Positions 27,801-63,274 of a stretch of 64,000 nt of DNA are shown piece by piece. How positions within the stretch are numbered: the first letter of the stretch is position 1; each line of letters begins with the position of its first letter. Source of the stretch: an uncultured Verrucomicrobiae bacterium (GTDB lineage Bacteria; Verrucomicrobiota; Verrucomicrobiia; Limisphaerales; JAFGQR01); assembly GCA_963788655.1 (NCBI GenBank), contig CAWBHS010000038.1:1-64000 (forward strand), read 5' to 3'. The notes below the pieces were generated by a model, which was not told where the DNA came from, did not search any database, and worked only from the letters and a program-made list of their open reading frames with translations. The position numbers were made by a program, and so were the translations under genes.

Positions 27801-29585
27801 GCCGATTCCCTGGCCACCATCCTCAACCAGGCCCTGAATCAGAAGCCCACGCCGTTGACCGAGCAAAGCCCCAATGCCCAATCGCTGCTCCAGTTTGTCG
27901 CGCGCACCCAGGACGGCAAAGCGTTGGTTACCGCCGCGCTGCGGGAAGCCGTCTTGATCACGCCGGACGTGCGGATGAATGCGCTGATCGTTTCCGGCCC
28001 CGTCGATTACATGGGCTTGCTGGAACAAATCATCACCCGCCTGGATTCCAGTTCGCCGCAAGTGGCCAAGATCAAGGTGTTCCAATTGCTGAATGCCGAC
28101 GCCCGCCAAATGTCCGATGTGCTGAGCACGCTCTTCCGCATGCAGCAAGCCGCCACCGCCAACCAGCGATCCATCGAATACACGCTCGTCAAATCCGATT
28201 TCAGCGGTCTCGATATGTTCGGCCCGGACCAGGAACTGGCTTCGGCCACGCTGGGCACCGCGGAACAAAGCGCGCTGACCGTGACGGTGGATCCGCGCAC
28301 CAACAGCCTGCTGGTCGGCGGCACCGAACACTATGTCGAGCTGGTTTCCGAGATTGTGACCGCGCTCGACGCGAATCCCGGGCAGGAACGGCATTCGGAG
28401 GTTTATCGCTTGAAAAACGCGCAGGCCCTCGGGGTGGCAACGGCGGTCCGCAGTTTCCTGGACCAGGAACGCCAGCGGGTCACCCAAGTCCTGGGTGCCG
28501 ATGCGGTCGGCACGGCCCAGCGGTTGCTCGAGCAGGAAGTCGCCATCGTGGCCGAGGAAGTCAGCAACACCCTGTTGGTTTCGGCCAACCCGCGTTATTT
28601 TACCCAGGTCAAGGCGCTCATCGAACAATTGGATCAACCCCAGCCGCAGGTGCTCATCCAGGTGTTATTGGCCGAAGTGACGCTGGATTCGACCACGGAA
28701 CTGGGTGTGGAATGGAGTTATGCCGGCGCCAAGAGCGGTAACAATTTTCTCACCGGCACCGACTTTGGCGTGGCCCAGGAATTGCAGACCTTCGGCGGTT
28801 ACTCGGCCGCGGTGACCGGTAGCGATTATACGTTCCTGTTGCGGGCGCTGAAAAATGATGGGCGCCTGGAAGTCCTGAGCCGCCCGCAAATCTTGACCGC
28901 CGATAACAAACCGGCGTCCATCAACATTGGCCAACGCGTCCCGCTCATCACCGATAGCCAGATCACGCCCCAAGGCGGCTCGGTCACCACATTCCGCTAT
29001 GAAGACGTCGGTATCAACCTGACCGTGACGCCGCGCATCAGCCCGGACGGCCTGGTCAGCATGGAAGTCTCCACCACGAACAGCGCCATCAGCAGTTCGA
29101 CCGTCCAGGTCGGCTCGTCGGCCAATGTCCCGATCATCAACTCGCGCCGGGCCACCACGTCCCTCAGCGTGCAAAGCGGCCAAACTATTATCATTGGCGG
29201 GCTCATTTCCACGACGGATGACGAGCGCGTGAAGAAAATGCCCTTGCTCGGCGATATTCCCCTGATCGGCGCGCTGTTTCGCAGCTCCCGCCGGGCGACC
29301 GACCGGAAAGAATTGTTGATCTTGCTGACCCCCCAGGTGTTGGCCAGTCGCACCAACTCGGTGGGCGTGGACGCGGAAAAACTGACGCGGGAGAACTTGG
29401 ATCGTTCGACGATCAAAGATCAAATCAAACGGGATACGTTACAAAAACAACTGCTGGATCCGCTGTTCCCGACGATCAAGGAAGAGAAGCCACAACCGAC
29501 CCCGGGACCGCAATCCAAAAAACCCGCGGTTGATCCGGTTGATGCCGCCGTCCCGATCCGTTACGAAACGCCCGACCCATCATGA
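12852..29585 (+). CDS. gspD: Giant GspD-type secretin (~5,570 aa), split into three ORFs by two compensating indels (~24320 and ~25010)
   Basis: Signal peptide, N0 (IRFQFDG..GTLTY), ~62 KH-like N repeats (L..A.A..V...L....D..SN.LIV), C-terminal QVLIQVLLAEV, LSRPQILTADNKPASINIG, KMPLLGDIPLIGALFRS; first and last ORFs share one frame. Confidence 0.9.
17901..20690 (+). repeat. Intragenic tandem repeat, 930-bp (310-aa, four N-domain) period
   Basis: GACAAGGT.AGC...CGCGTGTTCAAGTTGAAGTCGGC at 17901, 18831 and 19761; first two copies nearly identical in DNA. Confidence 0.92.
21370..23400 (+). repeat. Intragenic tandem repeat of a two-N-domain unit (~500-520 bp, four copies)
   Basis: GACAG.GAGGAAGG.CC.GGCAAATGGGA at 21870, 22371 and 22890; VVQGPP.KL motif four times. 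Confidence 0.88.
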
Positions 29586-49266: not shown

Positions 49267-50613
49267 ATGAAAACCAATCTAACTCGTCGTTCTTTTCTCA
49301 ATCGCGCCGCCGTATTGGGCGGCGGAATGTTGATTGCCCCCTCCGGCGTCGTCAAAGCCCGGGCCGGACAATCGCCCAACGAAAAGTTGAACATTGCCAT
49401 GATCGGCACCTGGGGCCGGGCGGAAGCCCACTTCGGCGCCGTTTCCGGGGAGAACGTTGCCGCGCTTTGCGACATTAACGAACAACACCTGGCCGGCGCC
49501 GCCAAACGGTTTACCAAGGCCAAGACCTACGTGGACTGGCGCAAATGCCTCGAGCAAAAAGATCTGGATGCCGTCATGTGTTGCACGGCGGATCACACCC
49601 ACGCCTTTGTCGCCAACTGGGCGATGAACCGCGGGCTGCACATTTATTGCGAGAAGCCGCTGGGCAACAGCGTCGAGGAAGTCCGGGTGGTGCGCGCGAA
49701 TTATCTCAAGAACAAAAACAAACTGGCCACGCAGGTCGGCACGCAACGCCACGCGATTGAAAACTTCAACCGCGTGCGGGAGCTGGTGTTGGACGGCGCG
49801 CTGGGCCAATTGGAACGGGTGAGCGCCTGGGGCGACCGCCAGATTCCCAAGCCCGGCTATCTGCCCCCGAAAGGCAATCCGCCCGCGGGTTTCCACTGGG
49901 ATTTGTGGCTCGGGCCTTCGCCCTATCACCATTACAACCCGGAATACTTCTCCGGTGGTTCGGGGATGAACTGCCTGCATTGGAACATGTATTGGGACTT
50001 CGGCAGCGGCCAGGTCGGCGATATGGGCAGTCACACGATGGATTTGGCCTGGAACGCCCTGGACGGCGACCTGCCGACCTCCGCCGAAGCCAAGGGCGAT
50101 CCGTTCAATGCCGATGTCACGCCGGTCAAACTGGAATCGCATTTCGAGATCCCCGCCAATAACTGGCGACCCGGCATCCGCGTCTCCTGGTATCAAGGTG
50201 GCGCCATGCCGGAATCCCCGGCGCCCTACATCAATCTGCACAAGATCGGTCACGGCGCCATGTTCGAGGGCAACAAAGGCATCCTGGTGGCCGATTTTGG
50301 CTCGCGGGTGCTGTATCCGTTGGGCAGCCATGCCGACCTGACGTATTACCAGCCGCGCAAGAAGGAAGATCTGATTCCGGCGATTGGCAGTTTCCAGGGC
50401 CAATGGATCAAGGCCTGCAAAGGTAACCTCCAAACCTCCTGCAACTTTGATTACAGTGGGAAAATGACCGAGATGATGCTGTTGGGATTGGTTGCCTATC
50501 GCGTGGGCAAGAAGATCAATTACGATGGCGCCACCGGCCGCGTGACCAACAGCCCCGAGGCCAACGAATTGCTTCGCCGCGATTACCGGGACGGTTGGAC
50601 GCTTGACGGTTAA
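49267..50613 (+). CDS. Tat-exported Gfo/Idh/MocA oxidoreductase
   Basis: TRRSFL Tat motif, YCEKP, TQVGTQR, WDLWLGP, GDMGSH. Confidence 0.92.
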   Translation: MKTNLTRRSFLNRAAVLGGGMLIAPSGVVKARAGQSPNEKLNIAMIGTWGRAEAHFGAVSGENVAALCDINEQHLAGAAKRFTKAKTYVDWRKCLEQKDLDAVMCCTADHTHAFVANWAMNRGLHIYCEKPLGNSVEEVRVVRANYLKNKNKLATQVGTQRHAIENFNRVRELVLDGALGQLERVSAWGDRQIPKPGYLPPKGNPPAGFHWDLWLGPSPYHHYNPEYFSGGSGMNCLHWNMYWDFGSGQVGDMGSHTMDLAWNALDGDLPTSAEAKGDPFNADVTPVKLESHFEIPANNWRPGIRVSWYQGGAMPESPAPYINLHKIGHGAMFEGNKGILVADFGSRVLYPLGSHADLTYYQPRKKEDLIPAIGSFQGQWIKACKGNLQTSCNFDYSGKMTEMMLLGLVAYRVGKKINYDGATGRVTNSPEANELLRRDYRDGWTLDG

Positions 50614-50651
50614 CGCGGCTGATTCGCTCCCCGCACAAAAATCGGACAGCC

Positions 50652-50917
50652 GGTAACCGCCGACGTAAAGAGGCGGAGCGCGAGCATGATGCGTCGGCTC
50701 CGCCTCGTATTCTGAATAGGTTCCTTTATCCCATCGCTTTCCTTCGCTGGGAGGAAGGAGGGTTCACCGGGCGGAGGTAAGTCGCGCCCGCGTTGGGAGT
50801 GCGCCCGGCTTGCCGGCGCTTTTGGTTGGGGAGCGGCGGTCAAATCGTTGCGGGCACGGCCTGCTTCCTAACGCGCGGCGCCTGGCACGAAAGCGGGAGC
50901 AAGCTCCACGCACTCCA
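50652..50917. repeat. Cluster of REP-like elements
   Basis: GGTAACCGCCGACGTAAAGAGGCGG at 50652; GGAGTGCGCCCGGCTTGCCGGCGCTTT / AAAGCGGGAGCAAGCTCCACGCACTCC at 50796-50917. Confidence 0.75.
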
Positions 50918-51266
50918 AACGCTTCGCGAGGATTGGAAACCACCGACGCGGATTCACATTGGAACATGTAGGACCGGCGCCTCGCCGGTCGGTCGGTATG
51001 CCTCGCTCCCGCCGGCCGTTAGAGGACGACGCTCGAATGGTCCCCCTCCCCGGCGCCATTCAGAGCAACGGCGCGGCGACGTTGACTGCCTCCGGGGCGG
51101 ACGCGCCCCACGGACCAGAGAGTCCGGACCAGTTCCTCGGGCAGTTCGCGGACTGGATTGCCCTGCCCGTCTCTGCCATCCAGCATCTGGCATCGTTCAA
51201 CTTCCACCGCAATGCTCCCTCCATCACCCGCAGGCATCCATCGGGCGCATAAGGATGAATTAGGCG

Positions 51267-51295
51267 TTGACAATGGTGGCAAGATCGGGTGTTCT
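51267..51295 (+). promoter_or_regulatory. Candidate cassette promoter (Pc-like)
   Basis: TTGACA-17 bp-TGTTCT; -35 perfect, -10 weak. Confidence 0.4.
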
Positions 51296-51316
51296 TGTCC
51301 CTATGAAGACCCAAGG

Positions 51317-51400
51317 TTTTCTGCCTATCACGGTAAACGGCAACTTTTTTCTGCCTAATTCTGTTATTCCACCCGTTGGTACGCCTAAACAGCGTTAGGC
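51317..51400 (+). other. attI-like integron recombination site
   Basis: CGCCTAAACAGC-GTTAGGC; core complementary to GCCTAAC of cassette 1; no attC stem upstream. Confidence 0.65.
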
Positions 51401-51420
51401 AAAGCAAGGCGCATCAACAA

Positions 51421-51867
51421 ATGGACACCATCGCACTCAGCAAATTCGGCCATTCCGAAGAGGAAGCTGCAATTACGTTCATCATAAACGGACGCGACCT
51501 TATCGACATCATCTTCGACCATGGCGGCGTTGCCCTTGGCCTTCCACTTCAGGTGATTTGCCAAGAGGAACGGTTCACAGTATTCAACGACAGGATTTCT
51601 GTTCGTCCTGAGCGCTTGGCAGTGCTTGCATGTGAGCAGGGTTGGTCAGGTGTCACCGCGGCGACCGCTATGGTAAATTGGTCGGACAGCGCCGTTACTT
51701 GGTCAGAGCTTGCGTCAGCGTGGCGAGGCAAGCCCTCGTCGATTCCGCAGATTGGGCCTTTCGAGTTTGACCGCAAGCAATACGAAGGAGTGATGGCGAC
51801 AGGTCGCGAATTAGCCGAGAGTTGGAGAATGTCACATGGCCTTCAGTCCAGTTCCAAAATTGCCTAA
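51421..51867 (+). CDS. Cassette 1 hypothetical protein
   Basis: ORF fills cassette; stop TAA lies in the R'' box. Confidence 0.8.
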   Translation: MDTIALSKFGHSEEEAAITFIINGRDLIDIIFDHGGVALGLPLQVICQEERFTVFNDRISVRPERLAVLACEQGWSGVTAATAMVNWSDSAVTWSELASAWRGKPSSIPQIGPFEFDRKQYEGVMATGRELAESWRMSHGLQSSSKIA

Positions 51868-51957
51868 CCAATCGAGTCACCGAATGAGCGGCAAGCACGT
51901 CAGTTTTGAATTTGGAAGGCACCGGGATGCCGCTCATCGGTGCTCTCAGCGTTCGCC
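51862..51957 (+). other. attC1
   Basis: GCCTAAC CAATC GAG T CACCGAATGAGCGGC ... GCCGCTCATCGGTG CTC TCAGC GTTCGCC. Confidence 0.9.
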
Positions 51958-51963
51958 AGCAGT

Positions 51964-52413
51964 ATGATCGCGCTCGATCTTCAGACGTTTGAGCAAAGCC
52001 GTGAAAGCGGCACCGTGACGGGCGTGATCCACGTTGATTTGGAGTCGGGGGCATTTCCAGAGACGGGCTGGTCAGATTTCCCCGTGATCATTCTCAGTTG
52101 GTGGGCCGAGGCATTGCTCCAGTTGGAGACGCCCACGAGGCGCGAGGTGCTGTGGCGATTCATGGACGGCCCGCACAGTCTGACGCTCACAAAGGTGACG
52201 GGCCTCGTTCCAAGTGGCGCGCTGACATTTGGGCGTGTGGAGAGTGGTGTGCTTGAGGCAGCACAGCGCGTCGTCGCATACTGCGAGCAGCACGAGATGT
52301 TCAGCAAAGATTTGGAGACGCTGCGAGAGAATGTCCAGAGACTCAAGGCGAACCAGACGGTGCAGCGAACGGGAGCCAGCCGTTCGCTCACATTGAAATA
52401 CGACCGTCAGTGA
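51964..52413 (+). CDS. Cassette 2 hypothetical protein (reads into attC2)
   Basis: ATG 13 nt after crossover; FPETGWSDFPVIILSWW. Confidence 0.75.
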   Translation: MIALDLQTFEQSRESGTVTGVIHVDLESGAFPETGWSDFPVIILSWWAEALLQLETPTRREVLWRFMDGPHSLTLTKVTGLVPSGALTFGRVESGVLEAAQRVVAYCEQHEMFSKDLETLRENVQRLKANQTVQRTGASRSLTLKYDRQ

Positions 52414-52447
52414 CGGCTGGCTCCCGTCGCTGACCTTTACGTTCTGC
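52347..52447 (+). other. attC2
   Basis: GGCGAAC...CAGCGAACGGGAGCCAGCCG / CGGCTGGCTCCCGTCGCTG...GTTCTGC. Confidence 0.9.
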
Positions 52448-52465
52448 GGAATCACGTGCGAATCC

Positions 52466-53779
52466 ATGCGATACCTTCTGTCCCTAATGCTAATCCTTGC
52501 GGCGAACCATCCCCACTGCGGGGGCGCAACGCCTGACCCATACGACGCGCTGTATGACACCATCATAGTCCGCAAGACGCTCGATGGGGGTGTTGTTGCA
52601 CCAGAACCGGAGTCACCCTTGCTTTGGAGTGATTCAACCTACTTGATCAACAAAGGCGAGCTTACGCGGCTTTTGAATTCACTGGACAGGTTTAACGCGC
52701 TTTCTCGGGAGCAGATCACAGCCTATCCGTCGGTGAAGCGCGCAATTCTACAGCACCACGTCTGGACGGTGTTCGACTGGACGACGAGGCTCAGCGAATC
52801 ATCGCTCGAACCACGGCTTACGCAATCCAAGCTGTTCAGGCTTCAGCAGGGTCTCGCTTCCACGATCAAAAAGCTCGCCCTGTCGGAGACGGAGATTCAT
52901 CGGTTACCCACCTCCATGAAAGTGCCCGCGGATTTCAGTGTTCAAGCACAAGATGGCGAAACCGGCGACGCGTTGAAAACATTGTTTCCACGTGATCTCT
53001 ACAATGAACAAGGCCCATGGGTGTGCCTTGCGAAGCTTGATCATGATGTCCCGGCGATGTTGCACACGGATTCGGTAGGCTCGCGTTCAGCCTTTCTCAT
53101 TTTCTTGAGGCTGCCAGACGGTCGCCAGGAGACTTTGGATTACCTTGATCGACTGGCAGCTTTTCGGTCGCCGTGGGTTCCAGGCAAGCAGGAGCCATTT
53201 GTAAATATAACCCGGCAACCGGTGATGAGGTATCTGGACCTGCACGACAATCCGCTGACTCCTCAGTTTCCTGTTGGAACTCAAGTTGCGCTTGTGCAGC
53301 AGGCATTGCTGATTAGCGACTCAGAGGAGCTTGTTCTAAGTCCGCTTGTGCAGAGCGTTCAATTGCGTGTCTATCTCAACGTCGATATTGATACGAGGCG
53401 GAACAATCAGGCACTCCCGCCGAGTCAGGTCTTCGCGGAGTTTGTCCTGCAGCCGAGAGAGATGATCAAGAGCGGGAACCCCATGAGAGCTGTCGCAGCA
53501 GGGGAGATTCGTTACTCGACCACCTTTGTATCTGGTGATCCAATTGAGCATCCGGGAATATCACACGGTTCCAACGTCCCGCGGTTGGAGAGCTGCACGG
53601 CCTGTCATAGCGCCTCGGGAATTCATTCCTTCAACAGCCGTTTGGAACTCTTTCAGAACAGAAGTCTACTGCCACCCCGTTTCACCGCGACCAGTCCGAA
53701 AGCAATAGGAGATTCCACTGCTAGACTGAAGCGCACGGACGTTTCGTGGGGACTGCTGCGAGGACTGTGGCGCAATTAA
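52466..53779 (+). CDS. Cassette 3 secreted protein with a single CxxCH heme-binding motif
   Basis: Signal-peptide-like N-terminus; CTACH near C-terminus. Confidence 0.75.
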   Translation: MRYLLSLMLILAANHPHCGGATPDPYDALYDTIIVRKTLDGGVVAPEPESPLLWSDSTYLINKGELTRLLNSLDRFNALSREQITAYPSVKRAILQHHVWTVFDWTTRLSESSLEPRLTQSKLFRLQQGLASTIKKLALSETEIHRLPTSMKVPADFSVQAQDGETGDALKTLFPRDLYNEQGPWVCLAKLDHDVPAMLHTDSVGSRSAFLIFLRLPDGRQETLDYLDRLAAFRSPWVPGKQEPFVNITRQPVMRYLDLHDNPLTPQFPVGTQVALVQQALLISDSEELVLSPLVQSVQLRVYLNVDIDTRRNNQALPPSQVFAEFVLQPREMIKSGNPMRAVAAGEIRYSTTFVSGDPIEHPGISHGSNVPRLESCTACHSASGIHSFNSRLELFQNRSLLPPRFTATSPKAIGDSTARLKRTDVSWGLLRGLWRN

Positions 53780-53794
53780 TACCAAAGTGAAACC

Positions 53795-53866
53795 GAAGAA
53801 CCAATCGTGCGAGCGAGTCCCGACTGCGCTATCGCGCCGTCGGGATCGCTCCACTCGGCGTTCGGC
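53795..53866 (+). other. attC3
   Basis: GAAGAAC CAATC GTG C GAGCGAGTCCCGAC ... GTCGGGATCGCTC CAC TCGGC GTTCGGC. Confidence 0.85.
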
Positions 53867-53875
53867 GGCGAATCT

Positions 53876-55530
53876 ATGAGTGTCCTCACGCGCATGTTTG
53901 GCAAGAAGCAGTCCCCAACGCCAAGGATCATTCCGATTTGCGCTGTTCTTCGCCACACACGTCAGCCGGGCTTCTTCCTCCAATCGTTCTGCCGCGACAA
54001 GTTTGCTGGTTTCCATAGGAACTGGGGATACCTGCAATCCCTTAGTCGCTGGTAATAAATAAGGGTGGCATGTGCAGGTCGAGTTGGCTATGATGCTCCG
54101 CTATGAGTCATTTGGCGGTGCTCACGCAGAAGTTCAGATCGATTTGGCCACTTCTTGATGAACGAACGCGGCGCATCATGGCGGCGAACGAGGCGATCGG
54201 CCTGGGTTATGGCGGCGTGTCGATCGTTCATCGGGCTTGTGGATTGTCGCGGAAGGCGATTGGCAAGGGAGTCCTCGAAATTCAAACGGGGACATGCCTT
54301 GCGGAAGGGCGCATCCGGCGTGCGGGAGCGGGGCGCAAGACGATCACGGAAACCGATCAGGGTCTGCTGCATGCACTGGAGTAGTTGATTGACTGTGGCA
54401 CGCGCGGTGATCCGGAGTCTCCTTTGCGCTGGATTTGTAAGAGCACGCGGACCATCGCTTTGCAATTGCGCCAGCAGCGGCATCCGATCAGCCATGTGAA
54501 AGTGGCCCAACTCCTCCACGAACAGAACTACAGTCTGCAAAGCAATCGCAAGACCGAGGAAGGCAAGGGTCACCCGGACCGGGATGCGCAGTTCCGCCAT
54601 ATCAACGCGAGTGTTAAAAAATCCTGGCGGCAGGACTGCCGGTTATTTCAGTGGACACCAAGAAGAAAGAACTGATTGGCAACTACGATAATGCCGGTCG
54701 ACAATGGCTGCCTTCCAAACAGCCCATTAAAGTCAGCGGCCATGACTTCCCGAGTCCCGAAGTGCCCCGGGCTTATCCCTATGGCATTTATGACCTGGGA
54801 CGCAATGCCGGCTTTGTGAACATCGGCACCGACCACGACACGGGTGCCTTTGCCGTGGCCTCCATTCGGGGTTGGTGGCGCTTTGAAGGCCGCCATTTGT
54901 ATCCCGCCGCCCGGAAGATTCTCATCACCGCCGACGGCGGTGGCAGCAACGGTTCCCGGCTGCGGCTCTGGAAATGGGAATTGCAACAGTTGGCCGATGA
55001 AACCGGATTGTCGCTTTCCATCTGCCACTTTCCACCCGGCACGAGCAAATGGAACAAGATCGAGCATCGCCTCTTTTCCTTCATCTCCTCGAATTGGCGG
55101 GGTGAGCCGTTGCGGGATTACGAAACCATCGTGAACTTGATTTCCAAGACCACTACGGCCAAGGGATTAAAAGTAACCTGTCGATTGGATCGTCGCAAAT
55201 ATCCCACAGGCCGAAAAGTCTCCAACCAAGAAATGAAGCGGGTGAATGTGAAACGCAATCTGTTCCATGGCGAATGGAACTATGTTATCAAGCCAGGCTC
55301 TCAGAGTCTGAGTTGATACCTTAATTACTTACCGAATACTTAGCGAAGCGGAGATGCGAACTACTGGGTTGCAGGTCGTGCTTGCAGACTTGGAAGATTA
55401 CTCACGGAGAGACAGCGATCAGCGCGTTAACAAAAGGTGGTGCGAGTTTACAGTTGTGACTTCGTTGATCACGACAAAATCCGACCGCTTGAAGAAAAGG
55501 CTTCACGCAAAATTGACCGGTAGGCCCAAC
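53876..55530 (+). pseudogene. Cassette 4 gene interrupted by an IS
   Basis: Removing 54045-55339 plus one TTA joins ...YLQSL to SEAEMRTTG... in frame. Confidence 0.75.
54045..55339 (+). mobile_element. ISAzo13-family insertion sequence (Rhodopirellula-type DDE transposase), apparently inactive
   Basis: Imperfect IRs GTCGCTGGTAATAAATAAGG / GTATTCGGTAAGTAATTAAGG, TTA duplication; RGDPESPLRW, SVDTKKKELIG, ITADGGGSNG, PPGTSKWNKIEHRLFS; in-frame TAG at 54382 and frameshift near 54620. Confidence 0.92.
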
Positions 55531-55661
55531 AAGGTCACTGGAGCGAACAGCCGCCCCGCTTCGCAGTTAGAGAGTCACGGGCTTCGGCGACGCGCTCTGG
55601 TTGTCGAGCGGCACAGGCGTTATCACGGCGGGGCGGCTGTCGCTCAGTTCTGTCGTTGGGC
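55524..55661 (+). other. attC4
   Basis: GCCCAAC...GAGCGAACAGCCGCCCCGC / GCGGGGCGGCTGTCGCTC...GTTGGGC. Confidence 0.88.
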
Positions 55662-55693
55662 CACAATATCACTCGGACATTCCTAAACAGCAT

Positions 55694-56020
55694 ATGCCAA
55701 TTTGCCCCGAATGCCGCACTGGATACGACGACACATTGCCCGCATGTCCTTCTTGTCACCGACAGAATCCTTCACTGGGGCGGTCATGGTCGATCATTAG
55801 GACCGGCAGGCTTATCGTCGGCCTTGTCGTAATCAATATCGGGATATTTGTCATGACGGCAGCTTGGCTACCACGAAAGAGCAGCTACCGATTCAGCGGT
55901 CCCATTTCTCGATTCATCAATTCCCGGGAACGATGGGATATTCCCTGGGTGGTACTGGTGGGCAGTTCACTCGTTTCCACCGGTGCAGTGTTGGTTCTAC
56001 GGAAGGGACAGAACAGTTGA
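55694..56020 (+). CDS. Cassette 5: zinc-ribbon + two-TM membrane protein
   Basis: CPEC-x10-CPSC followed by two hydrophobic helices. Confidence 0.7.
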   Translation: MPICPECRTGYDDTLPACPSCHRQNPSLGRSWSIIRTGRLIVGLVVINIGIFVMTAAWLPRKSSYRFSGPISRFINSRERWDIPWVVLVGSSLVSTGAVLVLRKGQNS

Positions 56021-56050
56021 GATGAAGAACAAGCCCAACAAGTGCGATGG

Positions 56051-58223
56051 TCGTGCCGAGACAAGCTCGGGACGTTGGAAGAGGGGTGACACCCCTTGAA
56101 ATTCGTCAATATTACCCAGTGGGTGCGTCCGCGGGTGCGGTCCAATCCCACTCGACCAAAGGCTAGCCACCGGGTCGATAGCGGAACCGAAGTGCGATCG
56201 TCAGCAGACGGTGTGCGAAGCAGAGGGAACGCGAGGGCGCAGGCCGCGGAATTGAACCCCGAAAAATGTATCGTGGTGGTCAGAGAATAAGTCCGGGCAA
56301 CCGGAACGAAAGCCGACAGGGTCCATCGCCTGGAAGGCGGCAGTCCTGTCCGCGTCACGGCGAGCGGGCGGGACCCCACCGAGGTCTGAGAGCGGGGCAT
56401 GCGCTTAGAGGGGTAATCCGGGAACTCGGGAGAACCTCCCGTCTCCTTGGGGAAAACCGCCGGAATCAGGGTGACCGGCACCATCAACACCCTGGCGTTG
56501 GCCGTTGGATGCGGACGGTCAACGAGCCGAACCCGGCGCGAGCCGGACGGAACACGAAAGACAGCGCATCAACCCAAGGTACCGGCAGGGAGCCGCAAGC
56601 GAACCGACCGGGAGGGACGAAGGTAGTCGTAGCAACGCATAGTACCGCTGATTCCGAGGCCGCGAGGCCGACGGATCGGACGCGTGGGGAACCGAGGCCC
56701 AAGGGACCCACGATAAACCCCCAGTGGGAGCGGGAAGGCAATGCCGGGCATGACCTCTGGACCAGGGAACTACCGGAGTGACTTCGAGCGCACCAACGGT
56801 ATCCTCGCGACTGGCCCAGATTGCGGAGCAATCAAAGCGGGAGCCGGCGATGGTGTTCACCACGCTGGCTCATCATTTGGACGAGGACTTTCTCACGGAA
56901 GCCTTTCACCAACTGCGGAAAGACGCCGCGGCGGGCATCGATCAGATGACCGTAGCGGGCTACGAGCCGAACTTGCGGGAAAACATCGCCGAGCTGGTGC
57001 AACGGTTGAAGACCCGGAAATACCGGGCGCAACCGGCCCGGCGGGTGATGATTCCCAAGAGTGACGGCAGCCAGCGCGCGCTGGCGATCCTGGTGCTGGA
57101 AGACAAAATCGTGCAACGGGCGGTAGCGAGCCTGCTGGAAGCGATCTACGAACCCCACTTCTATGGGTTCTCGCATGGCTTTCGGCGCGGGCATAGCGCG
57201 CACGAAGCATTGAGTCGTCTGCGGGACCAGTGTCTGAAGCTGGGCACCAATTGGATTATTGATGCCGACATTGCCAAGTTCTTTGATACCATCGCGCCGG
57301 AGCACTTGCGCACCATCCTCCAAAAGCGCGTCAACGACGGCACCATCCTGCGACTGATTGGGATGTGGCTGCACGTGGGCGTGCTGGAGGGAGAGCAAGT
57401 GATTCGGAGCGAACTGGGCACCCCGCAAGGGGGCGTGATCTCGCCTATCCTGGCAAACATTTTCCTACACACGGTGCTGGACGAGTGGTTCGAAACGGTC
57501 GTGCGACCGCGCATGGGCGGGAACTGCTGGCTGGTGCGGTTTGCGGATGATTTTGTCATGGGTTTTGCGATCAAGACCGACGCGGCGAAAGGGTTTCGGG
57601 TCTTGCCGAAGCGGTTCGATCGGTATGGGCTGACGATCCATCCGGTGAAAAGCCGGCTGGTGCAATTCAGCCGGCCGTTCGGGCGGCACGGCAAAGGCCC
57701 GGGGACGTTCACGTTTCTGGGGTTCGACCACTACTGGGGCAAGACCCTGAAGGGTGGCTGGACGATCAAGCGCAAGACCCACGGGAAACGGCTGCGCCGG
57801 TTCCTGAGCGGGATTCACGAGTGGTGCCGCAGGCACCGCCACGACCCCATCGTGGAGCAATACCGGACCTTGAAGGCCAAACTGCGCGGACACTATGAGT
57901 ATTACGGTGTGCGCGGAAACTTCAAGCTGCTGGAAGTTGCCTATGAACACACCGAACGGGTGTGGAAGCGGTGGTTGAGTCGGCGGAGTTCCAAGCACCG
58001 GCTGAACTGGGAGCAATGGATGGTGCGGTGGCAGGCGATCTGCCCGCTGCCGAAACCGAGGATCGTCCATGAGTTTTGAGGGCGGGCAGCAACGCGTCAT
58101 GCGCCCCGGCTGGGAACGGTCGGGGACACCCACCGGGTGGCGGGTACTGAGGAACCGTGTGAGGGAATGCTTCACGCACGGGTCTGTGGGGGGCGTCGGG
58201 GGCAACCCCGGCTCCTACCCGGC
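56051..58223 (+). mobile_element. Group II intron (probably bacterial class E-like)
   Basis: EBS1 loop at 56321-56329 complementary to the exon junction; domain V GAACCGTGTGAGGGAATGCTTCACGCACGGGTC at 58152; domain VI with bulged A 58217. Confidence 0.9.
56778..58079 (+). CDS. ltrA: Group II intron reverse transcriptase/maturase, no endonuclease domain
   Basis: AAAGID, DKIVQ, SHGFR, DADIAKFFD, GTPQGGVISPILAN, RFADDF, FTFLGF, LRGHYEYY. Confidence 0.95.
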   Translation: MTSSAPTVSSRLAQIAEQSKREPAMVFTTLAHHLDEDFLTEAFHQLRKDAAAGIDQMTVAGYEPNLRENIAELVQRLKTRKYRAQPARRVMIPKSDGSQRALAILVLEDKIVQRAVASLLEAIYEPHFYGFSHGFRRGHSAHEALSRLRDQCLKLGTNWIIDADIAKFFDTIAPEHLRTILQKRVNDGTILRLIGMWLHVGVLEGEQVIRSELGTPQGGVISPILANIFLHTVLDEWFETVVRPRMGGNCWLVRFADDFVMGFAIKTDAAKGFRVLPKRFDRYGLTIHPVKSRLVQFSRPFGRHGKGPGTFTFLGFDHYWGKTLKGGWTIKRKTHGKRLRRFLSGIHEWCRRHRHDPIVEQYRTLKAKLRGHYEYYGVRGNFKLLEVAYEHTERVWKRWLSRRSSKHRLNWEQWMVRWQAICPLPKPRIVHEF

Positions 58224-58323
58224 ACCGAATGACGAGGAGCGCGGTCAGCCGCATGTTCCAAGTCGAGCGCCCTTGGCGCGCTCCTCGTCATCGGTCAGCT
58301 TTGCGTTCGGCGGAAGACGGCGT

Positions 58324-58692
58324 ATGGCATTGACGTGCTACACTGGGCCAGAGGCACTCGAATGGCTGAAAGAGAAAGCCGCCGCAAAGGGGTTCGCCTT
58401 GAATCGCTTTGGGAACAAGGACGAAGCGATCTGTTTCGTGGAGCAGCTTTATCGGCTTGGAGCATCCAGAGTATTTGTGCCGGATGACGCGATCCGCGAT
58501 TACGAGAGGCTCCGGCGTGAGATAGGCGGGGCATCTTCCGACTCTCTCGTCGTTGTCTTGCCATCCGAGTCTGCCAAGCGAGAAGCTCTGCTTGAGTTTT
58601 ATCAGCAGGAAGCCAGCAGTGAGGGTTTGGATGACCAGACGCCGGAGCAATCAATAGCCGACGGCCAATACCTTTTTTTCTGGTGGGACTAG
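58324..58692 (+). CDS. Cassette 6 hypothetical protein (C-terminal FWWD)
   Basis: ORF fills the cassette between GTTCGGC and GCCGAAC. Confidence 0.8.
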   Translation: MALTCYTGPEALEWLKEKAAAKGFALNRFGNKDEAICFVEQLYRLGASRVFVPDDAIRDYERLRREIGGASSDSLVVVLPSESAKREALLEFYQQEASSEGLDDQTPEQSIADGQYLFFWWD

Positions 58693-58703
58693 ATGAGAGA
58701 ATC

Positions 58704-58796
58704 GCCGAACAAGCCGGATGCAGTGAACCCCGCGATTGCGCCTTGGTTTCAATCCGGATATCACTGGCGCGGGGTCACTGATCCGGGACGTTCGAC
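58704..58796 (+). other. attC6
   Basis: GCCGAAC...GAT G CAGTGAACCCCGCG / CGCGGGGTCACTG ATC...GTTCGAC. Confidence 0.9.
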
Positions 58797-58813
58797 TGGG
58801 AGCCCAACGCTTT

Positions 58814-59369
58814 ATGTCGGTTTACGGCCTTGAGATTCGTTACAATAACAACGCACCACTTCGCTGCTTTTCGCGTGAGCGCGGCGGGGTGAGTGCTCAC
58901 GTGTACACCGTGAAGGGAAACCAGCTCCAACTAGATGTCATGAGAAAGACGGACTTTCGTCGCTTGGAGTACCTCATTGCCTGCCTTGGTCCCCGGAGAC
59001 GTGTTGAGTTTTACGTTTATGAGCCGAGCACGTATAGGGAAACAGAGTATGGGGCGGCTTAGCCGTCTTGCCCGCAAGCCGCTAACACGTCGCAAGACAC
59101 CGAATTTCAGGCTTGGGTTTGATCTTCGTCTTAAGACAGGTGACACCATTCGGACATCTCACCCCAATCGCGGAGGACTCAGTTTTATGCTTGCCAACAT
59201 TCCACTCAACCATGCCAGAGCATTCGTGATGGCTTGGAATCAGTCCGAGCGATGGCATTGGCAGTTACCTGACCTCCACTCGGACGAAGGAGTCGCGTTT
59301 CACATCATCGAGACCGACTGGTGTGATGAGCCGCCCAGCGTCCGATCCGCATCCGACCCACATGACTGA
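58814..59369 (+). CDS. Cassette 7 hypothetical protein with a +1 frameshift in a C-run near 58991
   Basis: Two overlapping ORFs join as ..CLGP|GDVLSF..; the two halves resemble each other (RGGVS / RGGLS). Confidence 0.6.
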
Positions 59370-59371
59370 AT

Positions 59372-59441
59372 GTCGAACAAAGCGATGGACACGAATCCTC
59401 ACTCCGCTGCGCTCCTTGAGGATCGGTCATCGGCGTTCGGC
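59372..59441 (+). other. attC7 (short right spacer)
   Basis: GTCGAAC AAAGC GAT G GAC..ATCCTCA / TGAGGAT..GTC ATC GGC GTTCGGC. Confidence 0.8.
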
Positions 59442-59459
59442 GACATGCCGCATGCACTT

Positions 59460-59693
59460 ATGAGCAACGATACCCAGACAAACCACGCGGACACGACCTT
59501 GCTGATCCTCGGCATCGTGTCGTTTTTCCTTTACCCATTCACGGCCATTCCAGGCATCCTCATTGGCAGGCAGCAGACCGGCCTCTCGTCGCGTGGACGG
59601 ACTGGTTACGTGCTTTGCTGGATTTGCATGGGACTTTTCTGCGTCCACTTGCTGATCGTCGGCCTGATGCTCGCGCAGGGGATGGCACGATGA
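59460..59693 (+). CDS. Cassette 8 small two-TM membrane protein (DUF4190-like)
   Basis: LILGIVS...IPGILIG...G..TGYVL pattern. Confidence 0.65.
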   Translation: MSNDTQTNHADTTLLILGIVSFFLYPFTAIPGILIGRQQTGLSSRGRTGYVLCWICMGLFCVHLLIVGLMLAQGMAR

Positions 59694-59715
59694 GCACGAC
59701 TCTTCAGTCAGGATT

Positions 59716-59837
59716 GCCGAACAAGCGGGTGGAGCCGCCCCGCCGCCCCGCTTGTCCGTTTGACGCTGGGCGGCAATTCGAGAGTGCCTCGTGCGCTCCA
59801 CCGTTCCTGTCGGCGGCGGTCGCTCACCCCGTTGGCC
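59716..59837 (+). other. attC8 (short right spacer)
   Basis: GCCGAAC AAGCG GGT G GAGC ... GCTC ACC CC GTTGGCC. Confidence 0.8.
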
Positions 59838-59886
59838 TCTGCCGACAACGTCGTAGCAAGTCCGAAAGTCCGAGAGCCCTCGATCA

Positions 59887-60432
59887 ATGAAGAAGCGTAT
59901 GACGACATCCGACAAGTTGGCCCTTTGGGCACTCGTTGTCTCTCTGCTGGCGCTGCTCGGAGTACCAGGCTCTGCGTGGCTTTCGTATCATTATGCTGTC
60001 AAAGTCTTCCGCCTCCAGGAAATTGAAGCCAAAGCAGCGCAATGGTACGATGCAAAAGTGCGACTGGATCATGACTTGACTCTCTATGGTCGCGTAGTGC
60101 GGACGATTGGAGAGACGGAACTCGGGGTCGGCTTCAACACCAGACCAATCCCGGAGCCAGACCGGTTCTTCACCAAGGTGTTTGACACGGGCATTCACGA
60201 TCTCATTCTAAGCGATGTCACTCGGCTAAGAAACCTCGGCTTTGACGTGTTCTTCGAGGCCCAGGACTCCACGGTCAACGAGGCATTGATCATGTTCATT
60301 CTGAAGCAGGACAAATTGACTTCCGCAAAGAGGGCCGAGCTGATCTTCAGGTGTTTTCTAGAGAATGGCGTCCAGGCAAAACTATCCACAATTTCGCGCG
60401 AGGACATTCGCGCTTTCTTGCGGTCACGATGA
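59887..60432 (+). CDS. Cassette 9 membrane-anchored hypothetical protein
   Basis: N-terminal TM helix; ORF fills cassette. Confidence 0.75.
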   Translation: MKKRMTTSDKLALWALVVSLLALLGVPGSAWLSYHYAVKVFRLQEIEAKAAQWYDAKVRLDHDLTLYGRVVRTIGETELGVGFNTRPIPEPDRFFTKVFDTGIHDLILSDVTRLRNLGFDVFFEAQDSTVNEALIMFILKQDKLTSAKRAELIFRCFLENGVQAKLSTISREDIRAFLRSR

Positions 60433-60448
60433 GAGCAACAGAATGATC

Positions 60449-60546
60449 GGCCAACAAGGCGGTCCAGCGAACGGGAGCCAGCCGTTCAGTTCAGACACAA
60501 TTCGACCGTCATCGGCGGCTGGCTCCCGTCGCCGACCTCGTTAGAC
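60449..60546 (+). other. attC9 (close relative of attC2, short right spacer)
   Basis: GGCCAAC...CAGCGAACGGGAGCCAGCCG / CGGCTGGCTCCCGTCGCCG ACC TC GTTAGAC. Confidence 0.85.
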
Positions 60547-60574
60547 ACCAAGACCAAATTGAAAGGAACAGCAC

Positions 60575-60907: not shown

Positions 60908-63274
60908 TCACGCGGCGCGGGCCAGGGGGGCGGACTTCAGGCGCACCAGGGTGCTGACATCCAGGATCAGCCCGACCCGGCCATCGCCCATGATCGCGGC
61001 CCCGGCGAGGGCGGGGGATTGCTTGAACATGTCGCCCAGGCTTTTGATGACCACCTCCTGCTTGCCGAGCAACTGATCCACCAACAGGCAGCGCCGTTCG
61101 ACGCCGGTTTCGACCAGCAGGATGATGCCTTGGGTGGGATCGGTCTTGGCGGCGGGCACCCCAAAAAAATCATGGAGCCGCAACAGCGGACTGAGCCGGC
61201 CACGGACATTCACCATTTCCAGGCGGTCGTGCAGGGTCGAAATCATCTCCGGGGTAGGGCGGAAGGATTCGCGCACACTGTAGGTGGGCAGGATGAATCG
61301 CTCCGCGCCGACGCCCACAATGAAGCCGTCGATGATGGCCAGCGTCAGCGGCAGGCTGATGGTAAAGGTCGAGCCCCGGCCCGGGGTGGATTGGATGCTG
61401 ATGGTGCCGCGCAGTTTTTCGATGTTTCGCCGCACCACGTCCATGCCCACCCCGCGTCCGGAAATGTCCGTGACTTGTTCCGCGGTCGAAAAGCCCGGCG
61501 CAAAGATCAGATCGAAAACTTCCTTCTCGGCCAATTGTTCATCCGCTCGCACCAGTCCGCGGTCGCGCGCTTTGGCCAGAATACGCGCTTGGTCCAAACC
61601 CGCACCGTCATCCTGAATTTCCACCATGATGCTGCCGCCTTCGTGAAAGGCGCGCAGGAAAATGGTTCCCTGGGGCCGCTTGCCCTGGGCTTCCCGGCGC
61701 GCCGGCGATTCAATCCCGTGATCGACCGAGTTACGGATCATGTGGACCAATGGATCGGTGAGTTCCTCGGTAATGGTGCGGTCCAGTTCGGTTTCTTCGC
61801 CGCTCATTCGCAACTCGACCTGTTTGTCTTGTTTGGCGGCCAGGTCGCGCACCAACCGGTTCATCTTTTGGAACGTCGGCCGGATTGGGACCATGCGCAG
61901 CGACATGGTGACCTTTTGCAATTCGCGCGTAATTCCCGACAATTGGGCCAGGTTGCGGTTCAACCGCTGGCTCTGGAGGGATTTCAACGCGCCATCCTGG
62001 GCCACCATGGATTGGGCGATCACCAATTCGCCCACCAGATCCATCAAGCTGTCGAGCTTGAAAGTGTCCACCTTGACCACCGCGGTTTCGCTCAGGCGCC
62101 GGTTCGTGGCCGGTTTGGCCGTCGCCACCGGGGCCGGGGGAACCGCCGCCGAATCGGCGGCCGGAAGGTCTGGGCTCGCACTGGCCTGGGAGGCGGTAGG
62201 CGCGGCGGGCGCAGCGATGGCCGGCGTGGGCGCGGGTGCCGTCGTCGATGCTTCCGGAGCGGTGATGACGGCTTTTACCCGTGCCACCAGCGCGTTGGTG
62301 GGAATGATGATGGAGTCGGCATGTCCGGCGCCCAGCGCATTTTGGATTTCGGCGATGAACTGTTTCAGGCAATCGGCGCCTTCGAGGATCACGTCAATGA
62401 TGGGCGAGGTGATGCTCAACTTGTGTTGTCGCGCCAGGTCCAGCAACGATTCCAATTCGTGCGCCAGCCGGTTGACCGGAGTCAACCGCAGAAAACCGGA
62501 GCCGCCTTTGAACGTGTGAAAGGCACGAAAGATCGAGTTGAGCGTGTCCGCATCGACGGGATTGTCCTCGAGGACCAAGACGCCCAGCTCAATGTTCTGC
62601 AAATGCTCTTCGGATTCGGTGACAAACTCCCGCAGCAAATCCGCGTCTTGCTCGAGGTCCAATTCCAACGGCAGGTCGGCAATGGTTTCCGTGCGGGGTG
62701 TTTCGGCCGGCGGAGACGCTTCGGCGGCAGCCACGGCACCGGTTGGCAACTCGGCGGGGAGCGGCTCCGCGGCAGATGACAAACCGGGCGCTTCGGGGGC
62801 ATCGACGGATCCGACCGGGGGTGACGAAGACGTTTCGGAGGTGCTTTCGGCGGCCGACCACGCGGCTGGCATTTCCGGCAACGGCTGCTGGCGCTGCCTC
62901 GCGTCGAGCGCGGTTTGCATCCAAACGTTCCATTCGCGTAGCCAGGCCAGTGACGATTCGTCGAACCGGGCGGTGCGTTCGAAAATACCGTCCACCGTCT
63001 GCCGCGCTTTGCCGATGGCCGACGACAATTCGGACGGGAGCGGATTGGTCTGGCTGAATTCCTCGAGCTGCAACAGCAGATTGTTCAACGGCAGCAACCC
63101 GGCGTCCTTGCCTGGCTCGGCGAACATCAGTTCCATCGCCAGTTGGCGCGTCCATTCGGCCCACGGTTCTCCGGGAGCCGGCGGCGGGTTCTCAGCGGGC
63201 ACTTGGTTCTCCACGGGTGGGGGAACTGGCGCGGACGACGACGGTTTCTTTTTTTGCGGACGAGGTTTCTTCAT
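60908..63274 (-). CDS. cheA: Chemotaxis histidine kinase
   Basis: IFRAFHTFKG Hpt, LMDLVGELVI dimer domain, HMIRNSVDHG, DDGAGL, PGFSTA..SGRGVGMDVV, C-terminal CheW domain. Confidence 0.96.
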   Translation of the reverse strand: MKKPRPQKKKPSSSAPVPPPVENQVPAENPPPAPGEPWAEWTRQLAMELMFAEPGKDAGLLPLNNLLLQLEEFSQTNPLPSELSSAIGKARQTVDGIFERTARFDESSLAWLREWNVWMQTALDARQRQQPLPEMPAAWSAAESTSETSSSPPVGSVDAPEAPGLSSAAEPLPAELPTGAVAAAEASPPAETPRTETIADLPLELDLEQDADLLREFVTESEEHLQNIELGVLVLEDNPVDADTLNSIFRAFHTFKGGSGFLRLTPVNRLAHELESLLDLARQHKLSITSPIIDVILEGADCLKQFIAEIQNALGAGHADSIIIPTNALVARVKAVITAPEASTTAPAPTPAIAAPAAPTASQASASPDLPAADSAAVPPAPVATAKPATNRRLSETAVVKVDTFKLDSLMDLVGELVIAQSMVAQDGALKSLQSQRLNRNLAQLSGITRELQKVTMSLRMVPIRPTFQKMNRLVRDLAAKQDKQVELRMSGEETELDRTITEELTDPLVHMIRNSVDHGIESPARREAQGKRPQGTIFLRAFHEGGSIMVEIQDDGAGLDQARILAKARDRGLVRADEQLAEKEVFDLIFAPGFSTAEQVTDISGRGVGMDVVRRNIEKLRGTISIQSTPGRGSTFTISLPLTLAIIDGFIVGVGAERFILPTYSVRESFRPTPEMISTLHDRLEMVNVRGRLSPLLRLHDFFGVPAAKTDPTQGIILLVETGVERRCLLVDQLLGKQEVVIKSLGDMFKQSPALAGAAIMGDGRVGLILDVSTLVRLKSAPLARAA

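Follow-up and report, generated by a model that had tools for sequence, protein, structure and literature searches.

A group II intron with non-canonical ends, co-oriented with the cassettes, inside an attC site of an uncultured Verrucomicrobiae bacterium

Are the attC sites of integron cassettes colonised by group II introns of a single kind, or has a second lineage come to use them on the opposite strand? The question is raised by a stretch of 64,000 nucleotides from an uncultured Verrucomicrobiae bacterium (positions 1 to 64,000 of contig CAWBHS010000038.1, assembly GCA_963788655.1; hereafter the window, by which the whole stretch is meant). It contains a complete group II intron of 2173 nt, at 56051-58223 on the + strand, with the ends 5'-UCGUG...CCCGGC-3', which interrupts one of the attC sites of a cassette array. 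An initial annotation had placed this intron in the L'' box of the attC, co-oriented with the cassettes, and had proposed that it belongs to a separate attC-homing lineage with compensatory ends. The evidence set out below makes it likely that the intron belongs to an IIB-like lineage, resembling classes E and F, that encodes a reverse transcriptase (RT)/maturase without an endonuclease and homes to the top, cassette-sense strand of attC sites.

Across the whole 64 kb, the sole Rfam match at gathering level is to group-II-D1D4-6 (RF02005), which covers part of domain I at 56142-56394 on the + strand (74 bits against a gathering score of 49, E 9e-19). With a permissive threshold, Intron_gpII (RF00029), the model of domains V-VI, matches end to end at 58150-58223 (E 3.6e-05), its last position falling on 58223. 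Two covariance models were built from close copies of the intron and run over the window and the 80 loci returned by an RT scan of genome contigs; both intron ends are matched by Rfam and by these two models. The principal features inside the intron are as follows.

56778-58079, + strand: intron-encoded RT/maturase open reading frame (ORF), 433 aa, without an endonuclease domain
58152-58184, + strand: domain V, GAACC...GGGTC, in which AAC (58153-58155) replaces AGC and an A.G opposition replaces G.U
58188-58220, + strand: domain VI, followed by the last three bases of the intron, GGC (to 58223)

The encoded protein matches RVT_1 (E 1.1e-31) and, over residues 37-403 of its 433, the TIGR04416 equivalog for group II RT/maturases (322.9 bits, where the cut-off is 300). 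As had been noted, it is a FADD enzyme (the active-site motif is at 57540-57551), and neither of the two domain scans reported an endonuclease domain in it; a search of solved structures lists group II RTs, without naming the class. The ribozyme outside the ORF amounts to 871 nt. Domain V closes with a terminal loop of 5 nt, GAAUG, within GAGG-GAAUG-CUUC, and the loops of the homologs are also of 5 nt. In domain VI the bulged A58217 aligns with the bulged A of RF00029 and lies 7 nt from the 3' end, within the 7-8 nt that characterise a branch-point A. Domains II-IV have a conserved fold; among its 111 predicted pairs, 18 remain paired although both partners have changed. The departures from the group II consensus that the initial annotation had pointed out, namely the U-C start, the penultimate G and the AAC triad, are all present. 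The triad is neither AGC nor CGC: AAC stands opposite G in all 11 close copies, that of the window included. The ends UCGUG...GC agree with the boundary consensus GUGYG...AY only at positions 3-5 (GYG). A linker of sequence AAGGUA (56576-56581), between predicted domains II and III, is invariant in six aligned copies; it is a candidate for J2/3 and may have changed together with the AAC triad.

With such ends, where the intron starts and stops has to be established by comparison. A blastn search returned eleven close whole-intron relatives (L001-L008, L022, L028 and L069), with nucleotide identities of 72-86%. In all five loci with a readable 5' end the flanks are unrelated and similarity sets in at TCGTG or TCGCG; in all ten with a readable 3' end it ceases after CCTACCCGGC, at CCCGGC. 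The base that follows the intron is A in 10 of 11 sequences, including the window, with divergence beyond it. Furthermore, the ligated exons of L001 align without gaps over 138 nt with an empty attC at 55524-55661 of the window, and shifting either boundary by one base lowers the score. The bases on either side of each junction differ, which leaves the boundaries no room to slide. No uninterrupted copy of the occupied attC itself turned up in the window when it was searched with 20 nt spanning the ligated junction.

Pairing between the intron and its exons gives the same boundaries. At 56050 the 5' exon closes with GCGATGG, and AC opens the 3' exon at 58224; the complement of these ligated exons (GCGATGG/AC), which had been placed in a CAGG/CCTG stem-loop, is found there as GTCCATCGC, at 56321-56329 on the + strand. 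Exon-binding site 1 (EBS1) is CCAUCG(C), 56323-56329, held in an eight-base loop (56321-56328), and U56322, with G56321, faces the opening base or two of the 3' exon in a delta-like arrangement. In all copies with a known 3' exon, a U adjoining EBS1 is opposite the A at +1 of that exon, which resembles the delta-delta' interaction. With the EBS1 register held constant as the six bases after this conserved U, all seven copies pair at 6 of 6 positions with the last six bases of the 5' exon, the intron-binding site 1 (IBS1), and they do so with five different EBS1/IBS1 pairs: CCAUCG/CGAUGG, CCAGUG/CACUGG, GCAGUG/CGCUGC, GGAGCU/GGCUCC and UGAGCC/GGCUCA. When the boundary is slid by 1-4 nt in either direction, the pairing drops to 1-5 of 6. 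For a second pairing, EBS2-IBS2, no complementary stretch was found at the homologous place in 6 introns.

The insertion site is best understood from the array to which it belongs. About nine attC-like sites are spread across 51.8-60.5 kb, with a + strand ORF before each. All lie on the + strand, at 51862, 52347, 53795, 55524, 56033 (the interrupted site, which ends at 58311), 58704, 59372, 59716 and 60449. They share a layout in which a 7-nt R'' ending in AAC precedes about 9 bases and one extra base; next come 5-6 paired bases, another extra base, A, and a variable hairpin. Four stretches of the array are set out here.

56033-56050, + strand: 5' part of the interrupted attC, with R'' GCCCAAC (56033-56039), the spacer AAGTG and IBS1 (G)CGATGG (56044-56050), which ends on the extrahelical G
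58224-58311, + strand: 3' part of the interrupted attC, with the remainder of L'' ACCGA, the second extrahelical A, a variable hairpin, L' and R' GTTCGGC (58305-58311)
55524-55661, + strand: uninterrupted, empty attC in this array, whose counterpart in L001 and L002 is occupied
59372-59441, + strand: empty attC with GCGATGG/AC at 59382-59390, at the same place in L'', a perfect match for EBS1 and the delta position of the intron

The boxes of the interrupted site, GCCCAAC...GTTCGGC, follow the attC consensus (R'' RYYYAAC, R' GTTRRRY) with one departure in RRR. Once joined, the window exons fold as a 106-nt attC (dG -54.2) with the layout of the neighbouring attCs, and the intron is inserted after nt 18; its assignment to L'', beside the extrahelical base, is thereby borne out. 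As for polarity, bulged bases are confined to the 5' arm of the + strand in three attCs of the window and two of L008. Four window sites (51862, 52347, 59716 and 60449) have C as their first extra base, as is expected of the top strand of a classical attC. All seven + strand cassette ORFs stop between 5 nt inside and 23 nt before the start of the attC. The position of the extra bases, the C and the ORF layout together indicate that the array is + oriented, and that the intron is co-oriented with the cassettes, as had been claimed. No integron integrase domain was found in the 21 ORFs of 40-64 kb, and there is no ORF of more than 167 aa in 50.6-52.5 kb; as far as the window extends, then, this is an integrase-less attC cluster. 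The 9-mer GCGATGG/AC occurs four times in the window, compared with an expected 1.07.

Both the junction and the strand could be read in more conventional ways. GTGCG and GTGCC are each found near the 5' end and AC follows GGC, such that the intron might be given canonical ends, starting either at GTGCG (56042) or at GTGCC (56053), the latter with a 3' end ..GGCAC at 58225. We attach practically no weight to this. Among the homologs the bases at 56042-56050 vary, and hence belong to the flank, but the TC of 56051-56052 never does; two positions past GGC there may be C, G, A or T; and the alignment with the empty site has no space for extra bases. The homolog boundaries, the loss of EBS1 pairing (1-5 of 6 at shifted positions) and the empty-site alignment exclude the GTGCG start, while the frame displaced by two (GUGCC...GGCAC) is excluded by the invariant TC, the varying second base after GGC and a U-U mismatch that EBS1 would gain. 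The boundaries originally given, 56051 and 58223, therefore stand. The array could also be imagined to lie on the minus strand, which would turn the insertion into a bottom-strand one of the IIC-attC kind, and the boxes alone do not speak to polarity, R'' and R' being near-palindromic and each site being found on both strands. This is scarcely more credible, given extra bases in the + 5' arm, with C first in four window sites, and cassette ORFs that run on the + strand and end just before each attC. Nor does the intron itself fit: its site is in L'' and not at R'' TTGT/T, and it has an 871-nt ribozyme and an EBS1 pairing of 6-7 bp, in contrast to the ~412 nt and 3-4 bp given for IIC introns (PMC3753933, PMC7923331; here and below, statements on published systems rest on passages of the papers cited).

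Is the attC a habitual target of this lineage or a chance landing site? A simple attC finder misses most sites in the short homolog loci, and the flanks were read individually instead. When their exons are ligated, the window, L001, L002 and L005 all yield attC hairpins 106-138 nt long, in which the intron follows nt 17-18; L008, its flanks read by eye, has the same insertion layout, and three more attCs of the same polarity surround its intron. Wherever the 5' junction can be read, it is 10-11 nt past the AAC of R'', with the first extrahelical base of L'' directly on its 5' side. An R''-like sequence ending in AAC is present 10-11 nt upstream in all six homolog loci with a 5' flank (L001, L002, L005, L008, L028 and L011). 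On the other side, the 3' exon opens with a short L'' helix, A(C/G)CGA, followed by a second bulged A (window, L001, L002, L005 and L008), and a clear attC remainder is found 3' of the intron in 9 of 12 flanks, including the window. The survey of homolog insertion sites for which the initial annotation had called thus supports an association with attC. The most distant of these homologs is informative in its own right. L011, whose RT is 51% identical, starts UCGUG and has GGCTAAC 10 nt upstream; its EBS1 UGAGCC faces GGCTCA, its 3' exon ACTTG[A]CGGCGG closes a hairpin, and the insertion is again after nt 17-18, which is the same structural spot in a quite different attC.

Some of the homologs also bear on recent exchange. 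The attC occupied in L001 and L002 is ~87% identical, without gaps, to the empty attC of the window at 55524-55661. The introns of L001 and L002 are nearly identical to each other, and the metagenome-assembled genomes that contain them are labelled as different phyla; this likeness suggests that cassettes or introns were exchanged recently, or else that binning went wrong. In L022 (1-1004), the attC-intron junction is as in the window and the 3' flank is 89% identical over 387 nt, with ~540 nt of the RT missing.

Several observations weigh against the view that this is an active lineage homing to the top strand of attC. The 3' flanks of L003, L004 and L007 (3 of 12) are without a convincing attC remainder. 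The targeted attCs are related in sequence, and recognition of structure is therefore not separable from plain sequence homing. The perfect target at 59382-59390, just 1.1 kb downstream of the intron, is unoccupied, which argues against frequent homing in this genome. The G of the domain V triad is replaced by A and the Intron_gpII score, 37.6 bits, is slightly below the gathering score of 40, so that its activity may be lowered. Splicing, lariat formation and mobility are inferred from sequence. Finally, the likeness of the intron to classes IIE and IIF is one of described features.

Two other explanations draw on these points. One is that association with attC reflects descent only, the introns homing in the ordinary way, by EBS1 and a few protein contacts, into related repeats whose fold and bulge play no part. 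EBS1-IBS1 pairing is perfect in every copy, A(C/G)CGAA is common to most 3' exons, and sister clades use an EBS1 at the same place in domain I for ordinary sites, all of which this explanation would accommodate. It is harder to reconcile with five different IBS1 sequences at one structural position, with L011, whose 3' exon is ACTTGA and which nonetheless occupies the same position with respect to R'' and the bulge, and with the failure to find, in the six introns searched, an EBS2 that could supply an address of 11-13 nt; we judge it unlikely. The other is that the window copy is a fossil that neither splices nor moves, its AAC triad and odd ends being marks of decay. In keeping with this are the unoccupied perfect target, the sub-threshold domain V-VI score and L022, in which the same junction accompanies the ~540-nt RT deletion. 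However, AAC, UCGYG and GGC are invariant in all 11 close copies, those of the window and of 10 loci that include the end concerned, and recur across sister clades; the ORF is intact, with RT ratios of nonsynonymous to synonymous substitution (dN/dS) of 0.13-0.23 in 15 pairs of copies; the stems carry compensatory changes; and EBS1 tracks each site. Decay is, on this evidence, a distinctly improbable account, less so only than the rereadings of boundary and strand dealt with above.

Returning to a lineage that homes to the top strand of attC, a mode of operation can be proposed that is consistent with the observations. An intron co-oriented with the cassettes would be transcribed within the array transcript. 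Protein-assisted branching would take place at A58217, and splicing would restore the attC RNA. The ribonucleoprotein would then reverse-splice into attC top-strand DNA that is single-stranded or breathing; the target is read through 6-7 bp of EBS1-IBS1 and the U opposite the +1 A of the 3' exon. Since there is no endonuclease, synthesis of complementary DNA would be primed from nascent strands at the replication fork. The position of insertion would be fixed by a constant feature of the attC, whether the bulged base, the fold or the L'' sequence A(C/G)CGAA, and EBS1 would drift with each site. The variant ribozyme core (first U, last G-C, AAC) is an inheritance from a wider clade. As insertion splits the attC DNA, it should put an end to recombination by the integrase at that site and tie two cassettes to each other. 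As for the array RNA, an intron in cassette orientation could in principle be spliced out of it, unlike the blocking IIC-attC introns, and might in this way spare downstream expression, as the initial annotation proposed. A second lineage, using the other strand and another box, would also mean that introns have moved into integron sites on two or more occasions.

How does this intron compare with those already described? The IIC-attC introns insert into the bottom strand of attC, opposite to the cassettes, at R'' TTGT/T, by means of an IBS1 of 3-4 bp and a ribozyme of ~400 nt (PMC3001079, PMC7923331, PMC3753933). Like the window intron, S.ma.I2 and its relatives have an endonuclease-less RT and are attC-specific, including in clusters without an integrase, and they are mobile (PMC3001079, PMC7923331); an EBS2 pairing is likewise not found in either. 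In most other respects the two differ, and the window intron is not IIC-like. It occupies the top strand and shares the orientation of the cassettes; it lies in L'', after the extrahelical base and 11 nt past AAC; its IBS1 is variable and of 6-7 bp; and its ribozyme, at 871 nt, is not of the small IIC type. IIC-attC introns, moreover, block transcription from Pc and carry an outward promoter. A 2012-reported IIC intron, cited in PMC7923331, does reside in an attC's top strand and in cassette orientation, but it is a single IIC intron outside the IIC-attC subgroup. In a 2015 review, the passages on targeting credit attC to class C alone (PMC4424553).

The features of the ribozyme and protein lead elsewhere. 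Classes IIE and IIF and the endonuclease-less g1-g4 introns share with the window intron an IIB-like ribozyme, an RT/maturase without an endonuclease (D/En) and a 5-nt domain V loop, the last being described as an idiosyncrasy of IIE and IIF (PMC3753933). Those of IIE and IIF that were tested use GUGYG...AY (PMC3753933), in contrast to the UCGUG...GC ends and AAC triad found here. Some new endonuclease-less varieties have boundaries that the database tool could not predict (PMC3552965, which gives no sequences in its text). The word "integron" does not appear in the text of PMC3552965, and the passages of PMC3753933 name neither an integron nor an attC target.

The closest precedents in terms of genomic context are the integron-associated IIB introns of Sonbol and Siam (2021): UHB.I2, of class CL1, and H.ha.F1 and H.ha.F2, which are class E fragments (PMC7923331). 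All three are non-IIC and are located in cassette arrays or attC clusters without an integrase, and UHB.I2 is also co-oriented with the cassettes and has non-consensus ends, UUGCG..GU (PMC7923331). UHB.I2, however, lies just downstream of an attC and not inside it, with exons that are not conserved, and H.ha.F1 and H.ha.F2 are truncated at the 5' end, so that they define no insertion site or EBS-IBS rule (PMC7923331). Homing to attC across a lineage is not shown in the passages of that paper. The literature on group II introns and integrons that we searched yielded no description of a top-strand attC-homing lineage of this kind, and the 5000 best-scoring records of a tblastn search of plasmids contained only hits below 60% identity, with 47.6% as the highest. 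The wider pyrimidine-1 clade to which the intron belongs may already be catalogued.

The origin of the odd ends can be followed in a tree of 57 RTs, from which matches of fewer than 380 residues and two rows with stop codons were omitted. The close attC copies form a clade of seven with a Shimodaira-Hasegawa-like approximate likelihood ratio test (SH-aLRT) support of 100, all with UCGYG, AAC and ..CCCGGC, and together with L011 they are nested in a clade of 20 (SH-aLRT 96). Introns in the other branch of this clade (L014-L021, L024 and L035) start UUGCG, have AAC, end ..CGGC and are found outside attC sites. L012 and L013 start CAGCG, and L058 starts UCGCG. Both the UUGCG and CAGCG clades, outside attC sites, thus combine ..GGC ends with the AAC triad. 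In the sister clades domain I has, at a fixed location and just after a U, a sequence complementary to the 5' exon, which supports their non-G starts. Relatives at ~41% identity have the AGC triad and 3' ends ..CCGC followed by RAY, and the two with a visible 5' end, L032 and L027, start GUGCG. The occurrence of a pyrimidine first base, a G-C 3' end and AAC in sister clades that do not use attC means that these ends predate attC homing. The initial proposal of a separate attC lineage with compensatory ends is accordingly upheld in one part, the lineage differing from IIC-attC introns in strand, site, pairing length and ribozyme size, and needs correcting in another, for the odd ends and AAC are not special to it.

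Whether the ends compensate one another is a separate matter. Across the clades, G1 is accompanied by A(-2), and U1 or C1 by G(-2), a covariation that makes compensating bases a plausible interpretation of the first/penultimate pattern; U1-C2 and G(-3)-G(-2) could form two base pairs. Such a pattern would be expected if the first and penultimate bases touched directly, a contact known from work on the yeast intron aI5gamma. Interaction of the first and last intron nucleotides is described in the 2015 review (PMC4424553).

A more ambitious synthesis would be that the introns described here are an undescribed attC lineage, independent of IIC-attC, which finds its site by the bulge or fold of the top strand and cuts right after the extrahelical nucleotide, and that the whole of the wider clade operates on a remodelled core, with pyrimidine-1/G(-2) in place of G1/A(-2) and AAC with A.G in place of AGC with G.U. 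We put this forward tentatively, as a possibility with somewhat less than an even chance of being right in full. If true, the remodelled core would be a natural compensatory experiment on the second-step contacts and the domain V triple helix. In this conserved clade, whose members have U or C first, a penultimate G and AAC, residues commonly regarded as near-invariant exist as natural variants. There is also a practical side: domain V-VI scores below the Rfam threshold, and tools trained on GUGYG...AY boundaries would misplace such ends.

A number of lesser observations were made along the way. The sister introns outside attC (L012-L021, L023, L024, L035 and L058), with UUGCG, CAGCG or UCGCG at the start, have the AAC triad, and most of them end ..GGC; L009 and L010, which fall inside the sister clade and whose loci are without 5' ends, have the AGC triad and ..GAC ends. 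The Vicinamibacterales loci L030, L034 and L072-L078 contain a second domain V-VI-like element that ends ~100-200 nt upstream of the RT gene belonging to the matched intron, at about 2793-2900 in most loci; these may be nested or tandem introns. In the window, the array (50600-60550) is flanked by an oxidoreductase gene (49267-50613) and a gene for a CheA-like kinase (60908-63274). Inside it, between the attCs at 53795 and 55524, is an ISAzo13-family transposase (54103-55316), split over three overlapping ORFs, the last of which matches PF07592 with an E value of 8.4e-98. Elsewhere in the window are two very long ORFs, at 12852-24374 (3840 aa) and 24765-29585 (1606 aa), with repeats of 930, ~500 and 231 nt.

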